64,000 nucleotides of DNA from IMG/VR virus record IMGVR_UViG_2718218133_000001. The stretch is one strand, 5' to 3'. This DNA comes from a virus. Lineage: Duplodnaviria > Heunggongvirae > Uroviricota > Caudoviricetes. Position numbers and translations under genes: made by a program. The notes beneath the pieces were generated by a model. It did not search any database and had not been told where the DNA came from. It saw nothing but the letters and a program-made list of their open reading frames with translations. This document shows positions 4,900 to 63,881 of this stretch, piece by piece; the stretch's first letter is position 1; every line of letters begins with the position of its first letter.

Positions 4900-5987
4900 G
4901 AACGTCATTAGTCACCCGTGAAGAGATGATCGAGGCAATTGAACAGCACACTGCCTGTATCAGTACCAGGGATATACCAGGCGTTATTGCCAACTACTTC
5001 ATGATCACCAAACAACTTTACCGGAGAAAGGACAAGAACGCGGTTCACCGTATCCTGTTGTCTGATATCCGCGAATACCTGCTCGAACAGGGTCATCTGA
5101 ATTACGCAACCGTCGCAGCCGAAGCACGCAAGGAGGCACACAGAATGAAAGCAAATAACGTTAAATTAGAAAAAATTCATGCACCTTCAGTTCAGGAATC
5201 AGAGCTGGTGGTTGCTCAAAATCAGCCTGATGAAATTCCCGTTCTGGAATGGCTGGGAGTACGTGTAGTGACAACTGAGACTCTTGCTAAGGGGTATGGG
5301 ACCGATGAAGCGAATATTCGTAAAAATTTGTCTCGCAACCCCGATCGCTTTGAAGAAGGTAAGCATTACTATCTCTTAACTGGTTCAAAATTAAAGGAAT
5401 TTAAAAGGCTAGTGACTATTAGTCACTTGGTTAGCAAATATACAAGTCAGGTAATTCTCTGGGCCGAGCGCGGCGCTGCACGCATGTCTAAGATCGTGGA
5501 CACAAATGAAGCTTGGGCATTCTTTGAAAAACTGGAAGACAGCTACTTCCGGCAAAAAGAACAGCAACCGGTCGCAATCCCCCAAACATTACCAGAAGCC
5601 CTACGCCTGGCTGCCGAGTTAGCAGAACAGAAAATGCAGTTGGAACAACAGCTGGTGGCCGCAGCCCCTAAAGTCGATTTTGCCGACCGGGTATCAGTGG
5701 CCAATGGAATCCTGATCGGGAACTTTGCAAAGGTCGTTGGACTTAAGCAAAACGCCCTTTTCTCATGGTTGCGCCAGAATGGCATTCTCATGGCTTTTGG
5801 AGCGCGCAAAAACGTACCGCGCCAACAGTACATCAACGCCGGGTATTTCACGGTGAAAGAAGTGGTGCTGGATGATGAAAATGGCTACCAGATACGGCTG
5901 ACGCCCCAATTAACGGGTAAAGGCCAGCAGTGGTTAACTCGCAAGCTACTTGATGCTGGTTTGTTAAAACCAGTAGCAATAGGTTAA
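4896..5987 (+). CDS. ant: antirepressor Ant (KilAC-type C-terminal domain)
   Basis: 363-aa ORF; C-terminal about 130 aa is paralogous to the kilA C-terminus. Confidence 0.7.
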   Translation: MRTSLVTREEMIEAIEQHTACISTRDIPGVIANYFMITKQLYRRKDKNAVHRILLSDIREYLLEQGHLNYATVAAEARKEAHRMKANNVKLEKIHAPSVQESELVVAQNQPDEIPVLEWLGVRVVTTETLAKGYGTDEANIRKNLSRNPDRFEEGKHYYLLTGSKLKEFKRLVTISHLVSKYTSQVILWAERGAARMSKIVDTNEAWAFFEKLEDSYFRQKEQQPVAIPQTLPEALRLAAELAEQKMQLEQQLVAAAPKVDFADRVSVANGILIGNFAKVVGLKQNALFSWLRQNGILMAFGARKNVPRQQYINAGYFTVKEVVLDDENGYQIRLTPQLTGKGQQWLTRKLLDAGLLKPVAIG

Positions 5988-5998
5988 CAAAAGAAAAA

Positions 5999-6025
5999 AA
6001 CCTGCCAGCAAACTGGCAGGTTTCT
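5999..6025. terminator. hairpin CCTGCCAG..CTGGCAGG flanked by A-run and TTTCT
   Basis: seen in sequence after ant stop. Confidence 0.45.
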
Positions 6026-6981: not shown

Positions 6982-7827
6982 ATGCTGGCTAAAGTCACTT
7001 TCCTGAGCTGTATAACGATGAGCGATTTTACTTTTTCTGGCTATGAATTGGCCTGCTTTGTAACACACTCCGGTCTATCCCGTAGCGCCGGGCATATCCT
7101 GTCGCAATGTGCAAATCTAGCGGCAACAACCAGTGAATACTTCATTCACAAGCCTCACCGCCTGATCGCGGCAGAAACTGGTTATAGCCAATCAACCGTC
7201 GTTCGTGCATTCCGTGAAGCTGTAAACAAAGGAATTCTGTCTGTAGAGATTGTTATCGGCGATCACCGTGAACGTCGCGCTAACCTGTACCGGTTTACAC
7301 CATCCTTTTTGGCCTTCGCACAACAAGCCAAAAATGCGCTGATTAAAAGCAAATTAAAGATCTCTTCAGCGGCAACCAAGGTTAAAGCTGTTCTCGCTAA
7401 GACATTGTCTTTATTTAATTTTTTATCCACACCCCCATGTCAAAATGATACCCCCTCCCCCTGTCAGGATGACGTGGCAATAAAGAATAAGAAGTCACAA
7501 GTTAAAAAAACAAAAAGATCAGTTTCCGGCGGTGCCGGAACGACCAGATTCAAAAAATTGACCTCATGGATCGCTGAGGCAAAAGCAAAGGCTGACAATC
7601 TGCGGTTATCCAAAAAACGCGCTCAAAAACATGAGTTCAAGCAGAAAGTAGAGGCGGCAGCGCGGAAATATGCTTACCTGAAGAACAAGCGTTCTCCTGA
7701 TATTAGCGGGGTATCAAACTTCGATAATCTGCCGCATTGCATGACGGTAAACGAAGCTCTTAATGCGGTTTTAGCCAAAAATAAAGATAACGAAAAATGG
7801 GGTATACCGGCAGGATTCAGAGGGTGA
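6982..7827 (+). CDS. repL: RepL lytic replication initiator
   Basis: 281-aa ORF following kilA, P1 lytic replicon arrangement; lysine-rich central region. Confidence 0.7.
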   Translation: MLAKVTFLSCITMSDFTFSGYELACFVTHSGLSRSAGHILSQCANLAATTSEYFIHKPHRLIAAETGYSQSTVVRAFREAVNKGILSVEIVIGDHRERRANLYRFTPSFLAFAQQAKNALIKSKLKISSAATKVKAVLAKTLSLFNFLSTPPCQNDTPSPCQDDVAIKNKKSQVKKTKRSVSGGAGTTRFKKLTSWIAEAKAKADNLRLSKKRAQKHEFKQKVEAAARKYAYLKNKRSPDISGVSNFDNLPHCMTVNEALNAVLAKNKDNEKWGIPAGFRG

Positions 7828-24275: not shown

Positions 24276-26290
24276 AAGAGCTGTGCTATGGATCTGTTTG
24301 CAGTGGAATTGAAGCCGCGAGTATTGCCTGGGAACCGTTGGGTATGCGTCCGGCGTGGTTTGCTGAAATCGAGCCTTTTCCATCTGCCGTTCTTGCGCAC
24401 CGCTGGCCCCATGTCGCCAACCTTGGCGACATGACAAAACTTGCCAAAAAAGTCCTGGCTGGGGAAATCGAATCCCCTGATGTGCTCGTCGGGGGTACGC
24501 CTTGTCAGGCATTCAGTATCGCGGGCTTACGTGGTGGGCTTGATGATGAACGCGGCGCGCTAACTTTGAAGTATGTGGAGCTTGCAAATGCAATTGACGA
24601 CAAACGGTCTGAGTCCTTCCTCAAACCGACAGTTATCGTCTGGGAAAATGTCCCAGGAGTCCTGTCATCGGCAGATAACGCCTTCGGATGTTTCCTTGCC
24701 GGATTGGCTGGAGAAGATGCGCCATTTGAACCAGGTGATCGACCTGAATCAGGAAAAAGTAACGCGTTCTGGCGGTGGGATGGCAAAACCGGTTGCCATG
24801 CTCCAAAGTGGCCGCAGTGTGGTTGTATTTATGGACCGCAGCGAAAGGTGGCCTGGAGAATCCTTGATGCCCAATACTTCGGAGTGGCACAACGACGCCG
24901 ACGCGTGTTTGTTGTCGCAAGTGCTCGAACAGACCTCGATCCCGCAACGGTACTTTTTGAGTTCGAAGGCGTGCGCCGGAATATTGCGCCGAGCAGAGGC
25001 GAGGGGAAGGAAACTACCAGATATACTTCAAACATCGCTATCAGATCTTGCGATGATACAAACATAGTTGCCATGGCACATGGGCAAGGAGGGGCTGAGA
25101 TAAAAACCGATAATTCGGCACCAACTTTGACATGTAACCATGAAGCACCAATTGTATTGCTCGTCGACGGTAGAATGCGCCGTCTTATCCCTGTCGAATG
25201 TGAAAGGCTGCAAGGTTTTCCTGATGGACATACATTGATCCCTACGGAAAAGCGTAAAAAAGTTTCTTCAGATGAACTGGCATACCTTCGCAAAAACTAT
25301 CCTGATTTGAGCGAAGAAGAGGCCGCGATGCTTGCAGCTGACGGACCGCGTTACAAAGCGATCGGCAATAGTATGGCGATACCAGTAATGCGCTGGATTG
25401 GCGATCGGATTGCCAAGGCTGCATGTCGGCAGAAGGAAGGGAGTGAAACAAAAGAGCGAAAAGTTAAACCAGCGGCAGAATTCGAACGGTCCATATTCAA
25501 ATGGGCTGGTGGAAAATTTGGTGTTCTGGAACAAATCTTTCGCTATTTGCCAGAAGGGAAGCGCCTGATTGAGCCTTTCGTTGGTGGCGGAGCTGTCTTC
25601 ATGAATGCCGGATACCAGGAAAATCTGCTAAATGATGTGAATGCTGACCTGATTAACTTTTACAAGACTCTGCAACGCGAGGCGCATTCACTTATCACTC
25701 TGGCACATCGTTTCTTCCAGGACTACAACACGCAGGAAGGATACCTGGCAGTACGGAATGCGTTTAACAAACAAGTCTATGATGATTTACATCGCGCAGC
25801 GGCGTTTTTGTTCCTGAACCGACATTGTTTTAACGGATTGACGCGTTACAACCAAGCCGGTGAGTTCAATGTCGGTTATGGGAAGTATAAAACTCCGTAT
25901 TTCCCATTGCAGGAGATGGAAGCCTTCCTTGGTGCGGAAGGGCGTTCTGAGTTTGTATGTGGTGATTTTGCTGCGGTGATTGAAGCTGCCGGAGAAGGAG
26001 ATGTCATCTTTTGCGATCCGCCGTATGAACCGCTCCCAAATACAGAGGGATTCACGAACTATTCCGGTCATGACTTTAAGTTTGAAGAGCAAAAACGCCT
26101 GGCGTCTCTGTTGACGGATGCTCATCGCCGAGGTGCAAAGGTTCTCATTACTAACAGTGGCGCGCCAAACATCAGAGAACTTTATCAGGACAGTGGCTTC
26201 AGAGTGGAACCTCTTTTTGCCAGACGTTCTGTGTCTTGTAAGGGGGACACTCGAGGTGTTGCTCATGACGTTATAGCAATATTGCTCTAA
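24272..26290 (+). CDS. dmt: bifunctional DNA methyltransferase: N-terminal C5-cytosine MTase ([12 protein letters not shown]) fused to C-terminal Dam-like N6-adenine MTase (FKWAGGK, DPPY)
   Basis: 672-aa ORF; GTG start overlapping hrdC stop; canonical MTase motifs seen. Confidence 0.8.
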
Positions 26291-26297
26291 TAAATTT
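26281..26297 (+). promoter_or_regulatory. C1 operator (ATTGCTCTAATAAATTT, perfect consensus) overlapping dmt stop codon
   Basis: exact consensus. Confidence 0.55.
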
Positions 26298-57113: not shown

Positions 57114-57352
57114 AATTATGCCTCACTGTATTGACAACACAGAGCCTGAAGCTCTGACCTACTGTTTCACCCATGATCCATGCTGGGGTAATCTAACAAC
57201 ATTGCGCTGTGTGTAAGATGAGCAATGCATAGCTGTAATGCCGTTGTATAAGGTTTCCCTGTTTGCTCATTTCCTTCTGAGCCGCTCTACAACGCTGAAG
57301 ACACATTAAATAGTGAATCCAAAGTCGTATTACGAAACGGCGGCAAAACTAT

Positions 57353-57368
57353 AATTTATTAGAGCAAT
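57353..57368 (-). promoter_or_regulatory. C1 operator (AATTTATTAGAGCAAT, reverse orientation)
   Basis: consensus match. Confidence 0.5.
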
Positions 57369-57946: not shown

Positions 57947-58978
57947 ATGTCCAATTTACTGACCGTACACCAAAATTTGCCTGCATTACCGGTCGATGCA
58001 ACGAGTGATGAGGTTCGCAAGAACCTGATGGACATGTTCAGGGATCGCCAGGCGTTTTCTGAGCATACCTGGAAAATGCTTCTGTCCGTTTGCCGATCGT
58101 GGGCGGCATGGTGCAAGTTGAATAACCGGAAATGGTTTCCCGCAGAACCTGAAGATGTTCGCGATTATCTTCTATATCTTCAGGCGCGCGGTCTGGCAGT
58201 AAAAACTATCCAGCAACATTTGGGCCAGCTAAACATGCTTCATCGTCGGTCCGGGCTGCCACGACCAAGTGACAGTAATGCTGTTTCACTGGTCATGCGA
58301 CGGATCCGAAAAGAAAACGTTGATGCCGGTGAACGTGCAAAACAGGCACTGGCGTTCGAACGCACTGATTTCGACCAGGTTCGTTCACTCATGGAAAATA
58401 GCGATCGCTGCCAGGATATACGTAATCTGGCATTTCTGGGGATTGCTTATAACACCCTATTACGTATAGCCGAAATTGCCAGGATCAGGGTTAAAGATAT
58501 CTCACGTACTGACGGTGGGAGAATGTTAATCCATATTGGCAGAACGAAAACGCTGGTTAGCACCGCAGGTGTAGAGAAGGCACTTAGCCTGGGGGTAACT
58601 AAACTGGTCGAGCGATGGATTTCTGTCTCTGGTGTGGCTGATGATCCGAATAACTACTTGTTTTGCCGTGTCAGAAAAAATGGTGTTGCCGCGCCATCTG
58701 CCACCAGCCAGCTATCAACTCGCGCCCTGGAAGGGATTTTTGAAGCAACTCATCGATTGATTTACGGCGCTAAGGATGACTCTGGTCAGAGATACCTGGC
58801 CTGGTCTGGACACAGTGCCCGTGTCGGAGCCGCGCGAGATATGGCCCGCGCCGGAGTTTCAATACCGGAGATCATGCAAGCTGGTGGCTGGACCAACGTA
58901 AATATTGTCATGAACTATATCCGTAACCTGGATAGTGAAACGGGGGCAATGGTGCGCCTGCTGGAAGATGGCGATTAG
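57947..58978 (+). CDS. cre: Cre tyrosine recombinase
   Basis: 343-aa sequence recognised as Cre. Confidence 0.97.
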   Translation: MSNLLTVHQNLPALPVDATSDEVRKNLMDMFRDRQAFSEHTWKMLLSVCRSWAAWCKLNNRKWFPAEPEDVRDYLLYLQARGLAVKTIQQHLGQLNMLHRRSGLPRPSDSNAVSLVMRRIRKENVDAGERAKQALAFERTDFDQVRSLMENSDRCQDIRNLAFLGIAYNTLLRIAEIARIRVKDISRTDGGRMLIHIGRTKTLVSTAGVEKALSLGVTKLVERWISVSGVADDPNNYLFCRVRKNGVAAPSATSQLSTRALEGIFEATHRLIYGAKDDSGQRYLAWSGHSARVGAARDMARAGVSIPEIMQAGGWTNVNIVMNYIRNLDSETGAMVRLLEDGD

Positions 58979-59471: not shown

Positions 59472-59488
59472 ATTGCTCTAATTGATTG
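59472..59488 (+). promoter_or_regulatory. C1 operator (ATTGCTCTAATTGATTG) upstream of ref
   Basis: consensus match. Confidence 0.5.
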
Positions 59489-59586: not shown

Positions 59587-60147
59587 ATGAAAACAATCGA
59601 ACAAAAACTTGAACAGCGCCGCGAGTGGCAGAAGGCAGCCAGAGAACGAGCGATCGCTCGGCAACGGGAAAAGTTGGCTGACCCCGCCTGGCGAGAATCG
59701 CAATATCAGAAAATGCGGGATTCTATCGACCGCCGTATCGCTAAACAGAAAGAGCGCCCACCAGCCAGCAAAACGCGGAAAAGTGCGGTAAAGATAAAAT
59801 CTCGTGGCTTGAAGGGGCGAACATCGACAGCGGAGGAACGGAGCATCGCCAATGCTCTTGGCGCTCTCCCCTGCATTGCCTGCTACATGCATGGAGTAAT
59901 ATCTGAAGAGGTATCTCTGCACCATATCTCCGGTCGTACCGCGCCGGGTTGTCACAAAAAGCAATTGCCCCTTTGTAGATGGCACCACCAGCATGCAGCA
60001 CCGGCTGAAGTAAGAGAAAAATACCCCTGGCTGGTCCCTGTTCATGCCGATGGTGTGGTTGGAGGCAAGAAAGAATTCACCTTGCTGAACAAGTCAGAGA
60101 TGGAGTTGCTGGCTGACGCCTATGAGATGGCAAACATCATGCACTAA
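59587..60147 (+). CDS. ref: Ref recombination enhancement function (HNH-type endonuclease)
   Basis: 186-aa ORF; Cys/His cluster CIACYMHG...LHHISGR...CRWHH. Confidence 0.8.
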   Translation: MKTIEQKLEQRREWQKAARERAIARQREKLADPAWRESQYQKMRDSIDRRIAKQKERPPASKTRKSAVKIKSRGLKGRTSTAEERSIANALGALPCIACYMHGVISEEVSLHHISGRTAPGCHKKQLPLCRWHHQHAAPAEVREKYPWLVPVHADGVVGGKKEFTLLNKSEMELLADAYEMANIMH

Positions 60148-60336
60148 TAAATATATTATTTTTAATCTGAAATAATTGACAACTGACAAGTGACTTCAGT
60201 CAGAATCATCACATGCCCGGTACGGATGGATCCCTTTTCAAATATTCCATGGACGGCACAGTCTGAGTACCGGGCGCTACCTTCAGTTGTATTGCTAAGC
60301 CGCCGCTGGTGGCTTTTCTTTTTTGTAGGGGGCGCT

Positions 60337-60978
60337 ATGGATAAGAAAATATGCGTTGTTTCGATGAGCGTCGGCAAACCGGCGTCAATGACTGCTGCAT
60401 GGATCAACAATGAGCTAATAATGGCTGAGCGGACCAGCTACCCTGAACGCCGCCGCGATATGGAACTCCAGCTGCTGCGCGAATTGCGAGAAAAAGAGGA
60501 AAAGGGTTTTATCGTGCTGGTGGAAGAGGAAAACAGCTTTATTACTGGTCGAGTTGGCCAGCGTGTAAGGTTGCGCGATCCCTTCATGAACGGCAGACCG
60601 GTACTGATTGAAGCAATGCAGATTTACAAGGAATTGGAACGCCAGAAAGCGATCAAGTTACCGCGCAAGGAATCCGGCAAATACATCCTTCACCAAAGCA
60701 TCTTCGATTCCGAACACGATAAAAAAGGCGATGAATTTTTCAACATCAACTGGAGCGAAATAACGACAGAACATGTTCTGACGTTACTATGTTGCTTTGC
60801 GACGGAATACAACAACGTTGCCAGCGCCGACTACATCAGGGCAATGGTTGGAGAAGTTGAGGCCCGCCAGGAACCATCGTTACTAAGCCCTCTGATTAAC
60901 ATAATTCGCGGAACCCAAACGCTGGCACAAAAACAGGTGCCTAAGGGAGTATTAACAGGAAAAGGAAATTATCTATAA
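60337..60978 (+). CDS. mat: Mat-like protein (start MDKKICV after AGGGGG RBS)
   Basis: position after ref as in P1. Confidence 0.5.
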   Translation: MDKKICVVSMSVGKPASMTAAWINNELIMAERTSYPERRRDMELQLLRELREKEEKGFIVLVEEENSFITGRVGQRVRLRDPFMNGRPVLIEAMQIYKELERQKAIKLPRKESGKYILHQSIFDSEHDKKGDEFFNINWSEITTEHVLTLLCCFATEYNNVASADYIRAMVGEVEARQEPSLLSPLINIIRGTQTLAQKQVPKGVLTGKGNYL

Positions 60979-61034
60979 ACGTCAATGCATTAGGGTATAC
61001 TTCTCCGTAGAACTATAAGTAAATGGAGTAAGTA

Positions 61035-62342
61035 ATGAGCGAATATGTTGAGTTAGCATACGCTGCCGCTACAAGCAGGCTTTGTCTATTTACCGGGACT
61101 GGCTTTTCAAAGGCAGTCTCGAACGGTGAAGCTCCAACGTGGAAGGAACTATTAAAAAAAGTTTGCAGCAAAGTTCACAATGCCAAAAAGTTGGAAGACA
61201 CGTTATTCCCTGATGATAAACCACCAGCACTGAGTCTTGAAGAAGCCGCACAAATACTATCTTTGAAGCTCAATATTGAGGGTAAGTCGATTTATGATGA
61301 AATTGTTGACATCATATCTCCAATTCAACTTGGAGAAGACATATCAAATATAAAAGATTTTTTCCAAAAAAACTCATTCCGTGTCATTACAACAAATTAT
61401 GACAAGTTGGCTGAATGCTTGGTTGGAGATGAAAGTGTGCAGTCTATCACGCCCGGCCTGCCAATTCCAAAGTATCCATCCAAGGTGAAAATATATCATG
61501 TTCATGGTTCTATTGATTCGCCAAAAAATATGATTGTCACTTCAGATGATTACTTCAGATTTATAAATTCCGATACTTATTTTTCACGAAAACTTAGTAC
61601 GATGCTGCATGAAAATACAGTTGCGATATTAGGGTATTCTTTAAGCGACACAAATCTTAAAGCAATTATAAATGACTATAAAAAATTTTCGAAAAATAAT
61701 GCCCTGTGCTCTAATATCTTTTTGATATCTCGCAACAAAGTAAGTCAAGATATGAAGGATTATTACTTCTATTGCTTTGGTATAAGGGTAATTGACAATA
61801 CAGAAATAGATTGTTTCTTTAGTCGATTAAGTTATAAGATTTCTCTCATTAAAGACATCATTGAAAGAGCGCGCGAAAATATCAGAAAAGTTGTTTCGGG
61901 GGCTTACACTTATAAAAATGAATATCTTAAATTAGAGGATTCATTTTATCAAATTATATCATCAATTATATCGGAAGGTTTAGATTGGAATGATGATAAA
62001 GTCGTTTCTCTTTTCGAAAGGATAATAGAAAAAAAGAGAAAGTTAACAAGGAATAACGGAGCGTGGGAGCAATATGAACAGTTGGCAAAATGGCTTATAT
62101 ATTTTGGAAGCATCATAGAGGTTAGCAATACTAAGTATGAAAAAACATATTTAGACGCAGTTGAATACTCGATGGGTCATATGAGTAAAGAAAGGAATTG
62201 GGGAGTTTCTTGGCATGCTTACAGAGCTTGGGAAACACGATGGCCTGCAATAATTGCCTCAAATAGATTAATGATAAAAAACCACATTGAAACATTAGGC
62301 ACCTTGAAGGACGCCAACCTTATAGTTAAGAATATAGTGTAA
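61035..62342 (+). CDS. SIR2-family (sirtuin-like NADase fold) protein with about 150-aa helical C-terminal domain; solitary AT-rich cargo gene at the res-mod position
   Basis: 435-aa ORF; motifs GTGFS (about aa 20), ITTNYD (about aa 120), YHVHGS (about aa 157) in ThsA/DSR-like order; GGAG RBS. Confidence 0.75.
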   Translation: MSEYVELAYAAATSRLCLFTGTGFSKAVSNGEAPTWKELLKKVCSKVHNAKKLEDTLFPDDKPPALSLEEAAQILSLKLNIEGKSIYDEIVDIISPIQLGEDISNIKDFFQKNSFRVITTNYDKLAECLVGDESVQSITPGLPIPKYPSKVKIYHVHGSIDSPKNMIVTSDDYFRFINSDTYFSRKLSTMLHENTVAILGYSLSDTNLKAIINDYKKFSKNNALCSNIFLISRNKVSQDMKDYYFYCFGIRVIDNTEIDCFFSRLSYKISLIKDIIERARENIRKVVSGAYTYKNEYLKLEDSFYQIISSIISEGLDWNDDKVVSLFERIIEKKRKLTRNNGAWEQYEQLAKWLIYFGSIIEVSNTKYEKTYLDAVEYSMGHMSKERNWGVSWHAYRAWETRWPAIIASNRLMIKNHIETLGTLKDANLIVKNIV

Positions 62343-62361
62343 TTGTGGTCGATAAAAATTT

Positions 62362-62385
62362 ATCGGGCAGATAAAACTGCCCGAT
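62362..62385. terminator. bidirectional hairpin ATCGGGCAG..CTGCCCGAT between SIR2 gene and lxc
   Basis: perfect 9-bp stem seen in sequence, T-rich flank on minus strand. Confidence 0.5.
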
Positions 62386-62388
62386 AAA

Positions 62389-62637
62389 TTAATCAGCATT
62401 CAGGAGCAATGCGTTATCTATGATGATCTGCTCCCATTCTTCGAATGCCCGGTCACGGACGCCCTGGGGAACGCTGTTAGTTTTGAAATCGACGACCGTA
62501 CGCCATTTCCCGTCCGGACGGTACATGCGCAGAGCTTTACTTCCCCCTTCCCTGCGCACCTCAACGTTATGCTTATCAGCAAACTCTTGTAATGCTCGTA
62601 GCGTCCCATGCTTTACTGTGTAGTATCGCTTTTTCAA
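62389..62637 (-). CDS. lxc: Lxc/Bof-like C1 co-repressor (82 aa)
   Basis: size and position match P1 lxc; sequence not independently recognised. Confidence 0.45.
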   Translation of the reverse strand: MKKRYYTVKHGTLRALQEFADKHNVEVRREGGSKALRMYRPDGKWRTVVDFKTNSVPQGVRDRAFEEWEQIIIDNALLLNAD

Positions 62638-63107: not shown

Positions 63108-63881
63108 TTATGCGTATTGTTGGATGACGGCCAGAACGTCCGCCAGGTTGTGTTTTGTCTCGATAATCCACCAGTTACCCGGGAAATCGCTGTTCTTCGC
63201 CTTCGCTGGCAGCCAGCGAGCGCCGAATTTCGCCTTGATTGCGTCTTTCGCACGGAAAAGAACGCCTTTCATGCCTGAGGCTTCCTGAAGCCCAAATACC
63301 TCGCCAGCGGCGAATTTTGGTGCGTACATCATCTTCAGGTCGGCGGTGGATACGCGATAATTCAGACCAAGAGACTGAGCTATGCTGGTGGCATCACCCT
63401 GTATTGATGATAACTCTTCTTGTTTCTCGTTTCTGGCGGCAATTTCTTCCTCCGTGATGTTGCCAAGGGCCAGGTTTATCCGATCAGCGTCGGCCTGTTT
63501 CTCTTCATCGGTGCGCCCGGCAAGAACCGTGTTAATTCTCTGCAATATCTCCACATGATTCTTACGCATGCTGAGCAATTCCGGCGTAACTTCGTTAAGA
63601 TCCACCAGCCCAAGGATGGCAAGGTCGGAAAACATTGATACCAGGTTGTAGGTCATGCGATAGCTGAGTTGGCCATAGGCTGATGGCAACTGCACCGCAT
63701 CCATTTTATAGGCATCCATAAATTTAGAGCCGTCGTTTACGACATCCGCAATTGCCGGTGTGATTTTTCCTGTGGTGGCGGCCTCCCTGATTGCTGTTAC
63801 CCACGATTGAGTCAGCGCGGAAACTGCATGATTCAGATTGGCTTTGCGTTCTGCTGCAATGCGCGCGCTTGCAGCGTCCAT
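63108..63881 (-). CDS. hypothetical protein; reading frame appears open upstream to the window edge, so this may be the C-terminal part of a larger protein
   Basis: 257-aa ORF from ATG; my manual translation found no in-frame stop between 63882 and 64000. Confidence 0.4.
   Translation of the reverse strand: MDAASARIAAERKANLNHAVSALTQSWVTAIREAATTGKITPAIADVVNDGSKFMDAYKMDAVQLPSAYGQLSYRMTYNLVSMFSDLAILGLVDLNEVTPELLSMRKNHVEILQRINTVLAGRTDEEKQADADRINLALGNITEEEIAARNEKQEELSSIQGDATSIAQSLGLNYRVSTADLKMMYAPKFAAGEVFGLQEASGMKGVLFRAKDAIKAKFGARWLPAKAKNSDFPGNWWIIETKHNLADVLAVIQQYA

Follow-up and report, generated by a model that had tools for sequence, protein, structure and literature searches.

A compact SIR2_2 protein with a family-specific C-terminal solenoid in the mat-lxc slot of a P1-like element, a candidate single-protein anti-phage system

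The stretch of DNA analysed here, in the following called the window, comprises 64,000 nucleotides of a virus of the Caudoviricetes (IMG/VR record IMGVR_UViG_2718218133_000001) and carries a backbone like that of phage P1. Between its genes mat and lxc a solitary gene is inserted, denoted SIR2 gene throughout, whose product of 435 amino acids (aa) is composed of an N-terminal SIR2_2 catalytic domain and an all-helical C-terminal domain apparently restricted to this protein family. Such a protein probably constitutes a single-protein system of the 'mini-DSR' type, which depletes nicotinamide adenine dinucleotide (NAD+) and thereby leads to abortive infection or superinfection exclusion, carried as cargo of the variable site RD-1. 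SIR2-type NAD+ hydrolases (NADases) are established anti-phage effectors. The characterised SIR2 defences that act as one protein (DSR1, DSR2, Avs5) are about 1,000 aa long or more, and the small SIR2 defence proteins need partners, namely ThsB, HerA, a prokaryotic Argonaute (pAgo) or KomAB.

The three SIR2 signatures that an initial annotation, made from the letters of the DNA and its reading frames, had recognised are located in the order given there, as FTGTGFSK (residues 19–26), TTNYD (119–123) and HVHGS (155–159). The Pfam profile SIR2_2 (PF13289) is matched by residues 117–252 with an E-value of 1.1e-23 and a score of 84.4 bits, the cut-off being 24.5 bits. Profile alignment to solved structures, among them Protein Data Bank (PDB) entries of the DSR2 catalytic mutant H171A, places Asn121 and His157 of the SIR2 protein onto Asn133 and His171 of DSR2, within the corresponding TTNYD and VHG motifs. 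In an alignment of 28 homologues from alpha-, beta- and gamma-proteobacteria with a mean column identity of 68%, Gly21, Gly23, Asn121, Asp123 and His157 are invariant. The AlphaFold2 (AF2) model of the whole protein has a predicted local distance difference test (pLDDT) score of 84, and its top Foldseek matches are the anti-phage NADases DSR2, ThsA and KomC (E-values 5e-11 to 1e-8). A CxxC zinc motif is not found in the SIR2 protein, which harbors six scattered cysteines, and the Pfam profile of canonical sirtuins (PF02146) gives no match at E≤1. By profile and motif the SIR2 protein is thus placed as a member of the SIR2_2 or 'SIRim' class, which includes ThsA, DSR1/2 and the vertebrate FAM118; those of its members that are characterised process NAD in immunity (PMC12700824).

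The remainder of the chain, residues 256–435, is predicted by AF2 to fold into an all-helical domain of about 180 aa with a pLDDT of 90. Its helical nature had been noted correctly in the initial annotation, the length of about 150 aa proposed there being too short. A profile of this C-terminal domain retrieves 94 clusters only from 1.84 billion cluster representatives; the full-length matches are without exception 406–480 aa long with the domain at their C-terminus, and an N-terminal SIR2_2 domain is present in ten of ten distant members tested. As far as these profile searches reach, the domain is found in this architecture only and is not common to other effectors. Its invariant positions in the 28 aligned sequences include a set of Trp, Tyr and Asn-Arg residues.

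Altogether 684 homologues were found. Full-length relatives of about 434 aa and 50–62% identity occur across Proteobacteria, in Xenorhabdus, Pantoea, Klebsiella, Vibrio, Halomonas, Pseudomonas, Paracidovorax, Delftia, Rhizobium and others, and most family members are chromosomal rather than plasmid-borne. The distribution is patchy: contigs of 185,579 species, each represented by one genome, contain some 183 related stretches. The identical protein is present on 555 public contigs, where it is labelled 'SIR2 family protein'; the RefSeq/PGAP product name is 'SIR2 family NAD-dependent protein deacylase', and in PHROG the protein belongs to entry 7567 with 'unknown function'. At the DNA level the gene is found in 63 of 5,426 complete E. 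coli genomes, almost always on a plasmid, and 55 of 704 P1-like plasmid records contain the entire mat-SIR2-lxc stretch at an identity of at least 91%. In PLSDB, a tblastn search detects full-length family members in 123 plasmid records, 36 of them at 99% identity or above, 4 at 95–99%, 17 at 80–90% and about 66 at 57–60%. In IMG/VR, 16 of 28 full-length members reside in the context cre-c8-ref-mat-[SIR2]-ulx-darB and fall into three allele classes.

In order to describe the neighbourhood of the family, the open reading frames (ORFs) within ±4 kb of 66 loci from the one-genome-per-species contigs were clustered. No neighbour is conserved at these loci; the SIR2 gene alone recurs, and a second SIR2 or ThsA gene is present at none of them. 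This agrees with the earlier statement that a TIR, HerA or Argonaute partner is not adjacent to the gene in the window. The immediate neighbours are a heterogeneous group, of which about 13% match unrelated defence models of PADLOC (E<1e-10), among them MADS, type I restriction endonuclease, AbiD, AbiU, dGTPase, DRT and DUF2971/PDC-S31. Such a share is probably above the typical genomic background.

At one of these loci, in Vreelandella nanhaiensis, a gene for a 301-aa protein with a coiled coil and a TIR domain starts 95 nt downstream of the SIR2 homologue and is probably the ThsB-like PADLOC match among the neighbours; a homologous TIR gene lies near the SIR2 copy of a Pseudomonas metagenome-assembled genome (MAG). 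With two of 66 loci, a TIR partner was judged incidental or lineage-specific. Some family members are split or truncated, with ORFs of 274, 338, 118+136 and 318+111 aa versus about 434 aa, which suggests occasional pseudogenisation or sequencing frameshifts.

The site of insertion is well defined. In P1 (NC_005856) the interval between mat and lxc is occupied by res, mod and IS5 and not by a SIR2 gene, as had been anticipated, whereas in RCS47 it is empty and the stop codons of mat and lxc are 39 bp apart. The interval has been described as the hot-spot RD-1 of P1-like elements (PMC6906374, PMC10865808), and the hot-spot itself is therefore not new. Comparison with the empty RCS47 site delimits an AT-rich cassette of about 1.4 kb at 60979–62388, consisting of a 56-nt leader, the SIR2 ORF and a hairpin of its own. 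Its junctions, 60978/60979 and 62388/62389, lie exactly between the two stop codons, so that the earlier view of an independently acquired cassette is borne out. The same is true of the base composition, since the G+C content is 0.28–0.37 over 61200–62400 versus 0.45–0.52 in mat and lxc/ulx; the first 300 bp or so of the SIR2 gene are less AT-rich than the rest (0.41). The predicted ribosome-binding site is a GGAG Shine-Dalgarno sequence at 61025–61028, 6 nt upstream of the ATG.

The hairpin at the distal end of the cassette had been taken for a perfect-stem terminator of the SIR2 gene. The perfect stem of 14 bp is confirmed (-23.9 kcal/mol, z = -6.2 versus shuffled sequences), but its U-run is on the minus side, that of lxc, and not 3' of the SIR2 stop codon. 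Because of this position the hairpin fits lxc better than the SIR2 gene as terminator; it is likely the terminator of lxc and possibly a bidirectional one, although it was not called in a consensus terminator scan. A different GC-rich hairpin abuts the lxc stop codon in the empty site and in each SIR2 allele class. Each state of the slot has its own hairpin, and therefore the occupant appears to re-supply the lxc terminator.

Other P1-like elements harbor in the same slot res-mod, a RelA/SpoT pair, a DUF2971 protein, a PIN protein, an EAL protein with an AraC protein, or nothing. The RelA/SpoT pair corresponds to the PADLOC candidate PDC-S33, the DUF2971 protein to PDC-S31 and the PIN_12 protein to PDC-S34. 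Since RD-1 is published as a variable region and these cargoes match defence or defence-candidate models, the idea of a defence hot-spot, already voiced in the initial annotation, is reasonable, and the slot resembles a stock of defence candidates still to be validated. The EAL-domain protein and the AraC-type regulator were seen in the slot of one P1-like phage.

At least three allele classes of the SIR2 gene occupy this slot, with protein identities of 98–100%, 84% and 58–59%. All three share one and the same sequence from the start of the 56-nt leader through nucleotide 13 of the ORF, and divergence begins abruptly after codon 4 even in the 58–59% class. Such a stretch is either conserved for regulation or marks a fixed junction of recombination. 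Between the proteins of the window and the 84% allele, the amino-acid identity is 98% for residues 1–60, 96% for 61–115 and 93% for 116–255, falling to 69% for the solenoid, residues 256–435; in the 98% allele seven of seven amino-acid changes are located in the solenoid. The ratio of nonsynonymous to synonymous substitution (dN/dS, Nei-Gojobori) between window and 84% allele amounts to 0.05 in the SIR2 domain as against 0.14 in the solenoid, and in the close pair the values are 0 and 0.42, respectively. The SIR2 gene is under purifying selection, and the solenoid evolves faster than the SIR2 domain. Furthermore, the synonymous component dS is 0.22 in codons 1–115 and exceeds 1 in codons 116–435 (window 61035–62339 versus L088 6001–7305). 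This jump suggests a mosaic gene with a recombination breakpoint near codon 115, which coincides with the higher G+C content of the first 300 bp or so. Taken at the level of sequence, the pattern resembles an exchange of cassettes at one fixed junction, combined with faster evolution of the putative sensor.

In the mechanism proposed here, an N-terminal SIR2_2 NAD+ glycohydrolase would be fused to a family-specific α-solenoid of 180 aa to give an immune sirtuin made of a single polypeptide. The solenoid would hold the enzyme in an inactive state until it recognises a signal of the infecting phage, most probably one of the phage's proteins, and activation might proceed through a changed oligomeric state. 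NAD+ would then be destroyed and the infection would abort. As exchangeable RD-1 cargo the gene would guard the lysogen and its prophage against competing phages, at the place which in P1 belongs to the EcoP1I restriction system. That the protein hydrolyses NAD+, responds to a trigger, aborts infection and is made in the lysogen is inference.

Several observations weigh against this proposal. The solenoid gives generic fold matches only, so that its role as sensor rests on the analogy with DSR2, and its dN/dS is well below 1, which is no proof of positive selection. Most chromosomal neighbours of the family are housekeeping genes (e.g. aconitase, EPSP synthase and Hsp90) rather than defence islands. 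A literature search, which included accession numbers and the PHROG identifier, found no paper on the SIR2 protein or its family. Moreover, a consensus scan between mat and the SIR2 gene, which follows mat by 56 nt on the same strand, detects neither a σ70-like promoter nor a terminator, and by eye the leader contains only weak -10-like hexamers. The sole recognisable promoter set upstream on the plus strand is that of mat, which according to the P1 annotation (NC_005856) is under control of the C1 operator Omat, the σ70 promoter Pmat and the late promoter LPmat. Because mat is repressed by C1 and driven by a late promoter, and nothing separates the two genes, the SIR2 gene may share the mat transcript. 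Judged from this arrangement it may be shut off in the lysogen and turned on by induction, and possibly it is made mainly during the phage's own lytic growth, which would be a poor fit to defence of the lysogen.

These regulatory features are the starting point of an alternative in which the SIR2 protein serves the lytic cycle or counter-defence. It would be co-transcribed with mat from Pmat/LPmat after derepression from C1 and would ADP-ribosylate or deacylate a host or phage target, or alter NAD-derived immune signalling, without protecting the lysogen. The 98% conservation of the region containing Omat, Pmat and LPmat and the invariant leader, which suggests a fixed regulatory context, speak for it, as does the comparison with P1, whose res and mod genes are by contrast on the strand opposite to mat and have promoters of their own. 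However, the family stands alone, between housekeeping or defence genes, in the chromosomes of many non-P1 bacteria, so that it must be able to function independently of P1 lytic development; the gene is dispensable, because the slot is empty or otherwise filled in most P1-like elements; and its closest structural relatives are NADases of host defence. Strictly lytic expression of slot cargo is also disfavored by relA_P1, a plus-strand cargo of the same slot, which has a clear phenotype in lysogens and is functional when 134 bp of its upstream region are cloned along with it (PMC10865808). Altogether a lytic or counter-defence function is considered unlikely.

Whether the protein is an effector whose partner is encoded elsewhere, either in a Thoeris-like manner with a signal made by a TIR protein or as an orphan LmuA-type component of Lamassu, can be judged from the profile matches and the 66 loci. 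PADLOC reports domain-level matches to ThsA (E 2e-17) and to SIR2-type LmuA (433 aa, E 6e-16), and the TIR genes at the Vreelandella and Pseudomonas loci point in the same direction. In both profiles, however, only the SIR2 part is matched, i.e. neither SLOG nor the C-terminal half of LmuA is present; LmuB/LmuC, ThsB and HerA are conserved at none of the 66 loci, and a TIR neighbour is confined to the two loci mentioned. A partner scan of the other ORFs of the 64-kb window is weakly informative, the best 25 of 64 PADLOC families being all DNA methyltransferase models. A separately encoded partner is accordingly regarded as distinctly unlikely. The PGAP name and the many chromosomal copies flanked by housekeeping genes would agree with an ordinary protein deacylase that depends on NAD and serves regulation or metabolism independently of phages. 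This explanation is difficult to reconcile with the missing match to the canonical sirtuin profile, the missing CxxC motif, the immune character of the SIR2_2 class (PMC12700824), the patchy occurrence and the presence as cargo of a mobile-element hot-spot; it is very unlikely. The slimmest chance is assigned to a post-segregational or addiction function, in which the NADase would be unleashed upon plasmid loss and would replace the stabilising role of res-mod. The res-mod genes are considered a plasmid-stabilising module in P1 (PMC6906374), and a toxic effector made of one protein is capable of such action from a plasmid hot-spot, but an antitoxin-like partner is found neither in the window nor conserved at the 66 loci, and most family members are chromosomal.

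Beyond the preferred reading as a single-protein NAD+-depleting system, a more specific version is put forward only tentatively. According to this, the proteins may form an unrecognised, autonomous family of immune sirtuins with a 180-residue solenoid as sensor, present in P1-like elements as swappable alleles of 58–100% identity behind one leader and shaped by diversifying or balancing selection, perhaps deployed chiefly on prophage induction against co-infecting phages, given the C1/Lpa-controlled mat promoter. If autonomous defence applies, sensor and killer would be combined in 435 aa, which is more compact than any autonomous sirtuin defence described so far, and the protein would provide a tractable model of how a short α-solenoid gates a SIR2 active site. 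The gene is common in P1-like phage-plasmids of clinically relevant E. coli, Salmonella and Klebsiella, and with about 123 PLSDB records carrying a family member it could affect host range in phage therapy and the competition among phages. The allele series at one hot-spot represents a natural experiment on sensor specificity. Were the protein inactive or non-defensive, it would simply add to the cargo proteins annotated as 'SIR2 family protein'.

The surroundings of the cassette are those of a P1-like backbone, with cre, c8, ref and mat upstream and lxc, ulx and darB downstream on the minus strand. The mat gene is 94–98% identical to mat of the P1 family and is named maturation control protein in the near-identical plasmid CP056621. 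The P1 features of the mat control region were transferred with an offset of 57510 (window = P1 + 57510). Throughout the window the operators of the P1 immunity network are conserved: the C1 operator consensus ATTGCTCTAATAAATTT is matched with up to three mismatches at 16 sites between 4328 and 59488 (0.44 expected), including 26281–26297 (exact), 57352–57368 and 59472–59488. None of these matches is located in the SIR2 cassette, the nearest being the Oref-like site at 59472 and the Omat region. An apparent truncation of darB at 63108–63881 was dismissed as an artefact of ORF listing at the window end, to which the frame stays open. The features are compiled in the following table.

Table. Features of the SIR2 cassette, its flanks and compared loci. 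Positions refer to the window unless a locus designation (L with number) is given.
Feature	Position	Strand	Remarks
SIR2 gene	61035–62342	+	ORF, ATG start, 435 aa
SIR2_2 catalytic domain	61035–61799	+	residues 1–255; GxG loop G21/G23, catalytic N121, H157; no zinc module
C-terminal α-solenoid	61800–62342	+	residues 256–435 and stop codon; family-specific, putative sensor/regulatory domain
Cassette leader	60979–61034	+	56 nt, holds ribosome-binding site; not present at empty RCS47 site
Identical leader stretch	60979–61047; L088, L091, L095, L097 at 5945–6013		shared by the allele classes
Hairpin	62357–62390	.	perfect 14-bp stem, came with cassette, abuts and overlaps lxc stop codon
Differing hairpins	62357–62390; L091 about 7310–7345; L082 2294–2315		
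Cre recombinase	57947–58978		upstream of c8, ref, mat
mat control region	60138–60206	+	98% identical to P1 NC_005856 2590–2750, features annotated there
C1 operator Omat	60138–60155	+	transferred from P1
σ70 promoter Pmat, -35	60176–60181	+	transferred from P1
Late promoter LPmat, -22/-10	60188–60206	+	transferred from P1
mat (maturation control)	60337–60978	+	ORF; left flank of RD-1 slot
lxc (modulator of C1)	62389–62637	-	ORF; right flank of RD-1; annotation from CP056621 and P1
Alternative slot cargoes	L083 1189–2288; L086 1187–2227 (-); L087 1131–2081 (-); L085 1235–2809		
Coiled-coil and TIR gene	L008 9406–10308	+	Vreelandella nanhaiensis; C-terminal TIR, motif DLFISHASEDK
TIR homologue	L032 6459–7208	-	near SIR2 copy in Pseudomonas MAG
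Split or truncated members	L112 3509–4809; L116 6001–7303; L063 8496–9304; L013 7998–9356		

In order to compare the SIR2 protein with known defence systems, profile and structural matches were considered together with gene context. As suggested in the initial annotation, none of the described SIR2 defence architectures is fitted, the PADLOC and NCBIfam matches being confined to the core domain. The best PADLOC match is PDC-S25 (E 1.4e-26), a single-gene SIR2 defence candidate; membership was rejected, as only the SIR2 core (profile positions 127–289 of 517) is covered, the length differs and the remainder of the protein is unmatched. With ThsA of type I Thoeris the SIR2 protein shares the SIR2_2 domain, a structural match and a similar size (ThsA about 476 aa). 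The C-terminal SLOG domain of ThsA, however, binds glycocyclic ADP-ribose (gcADPR) made by a TIR protein, and ThsA needs ThsB; an unrelated helical solenoid is found at this position in the SIR2 protein. The ThsA profile is matched at positions 108–229 of 478 only, a SLOG (or Macro) domain is missing, and the window contains no ThsB (TIR) gene. SIR2-type LmuA belongs to the same length class and carries its SIR2 effector domain N-terminally as well; of its profile positions 14–238 are matched and 239–433 are not, and LmuB (SMC-like) or LmuC is next to the gene at none of the 66 loci. SIR2-HerA (Nezha) was rejected because the adjacent genes are mat and lxc and not HerA, which is not conserved at the 66 loci either, and because the match to the HerA-type SIR2 models of PADLOC is weak (E 7e-7); a Vibrio cholerae NADase paper deals with this SIR2-HerA system and not with the SIR2-solenoid family. 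For SPARSA (short pAgo-SIR2) and Avs5, no APAZ/Argonaute or STAND NTPase match is obtained with Pfam or PADLOC, nor is there such a neighbour. The canonical deacylases (CobB/Sir2) are set apart by their own Pfam profile and by a four-cysteine zinc ribbon, both of which fail to match. EcoP1I res-mod, relA_P1, the DUF2971 protein and the PIN protein have the mat-lxc slot of the P1 backbone in common with the SIR2 cassette, but these and other RD-1 cargoes are unrelated to the SIR2 protein in sequence and mechanism.

The best structural and profile match of all is DSR2 from Bacillus subtilis (PDB codes 8wkx, 8k98 and others). Both proteins are single polypeptides without a partner gene, in which an N-terminal SIR2_2 domain with TTNYD and VHG motifs is followed by helical, solenoid-type domains, and like DSR1 and DSR2 the SIR2 gene stands alone. 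NAD+ hydrolysis by DSR2 is activated when its C-terminal α-solenoid domain binds the tail-tube protein of the phage (PMC11850899, PMC10981675). Membership in DSR1 or DSR2 was nevertheless rejected: the NCBIfam equivalog models, about 1,200 aa long and with a cut-off of 1400 bits, are matched in the SIR2 core only (Dsr1 26.2 bits, Dsr2 22.5 bits), and the PADLOC matches are partial (E 4e-5 for Dsr1 and 7e-7 for Dsr2). In accordance with the earlier remark on its small size, the SIR2 protein is less than half as long as DSR2, and its C-terminal domain is unrelated. By analogy it would work most like DSR2, namely as an autonomous SIR2 NADase coupled to a solenoid sensor. Its compact architecture is distinct within the known defence sirtuins, and databases already list the protein under generic names.

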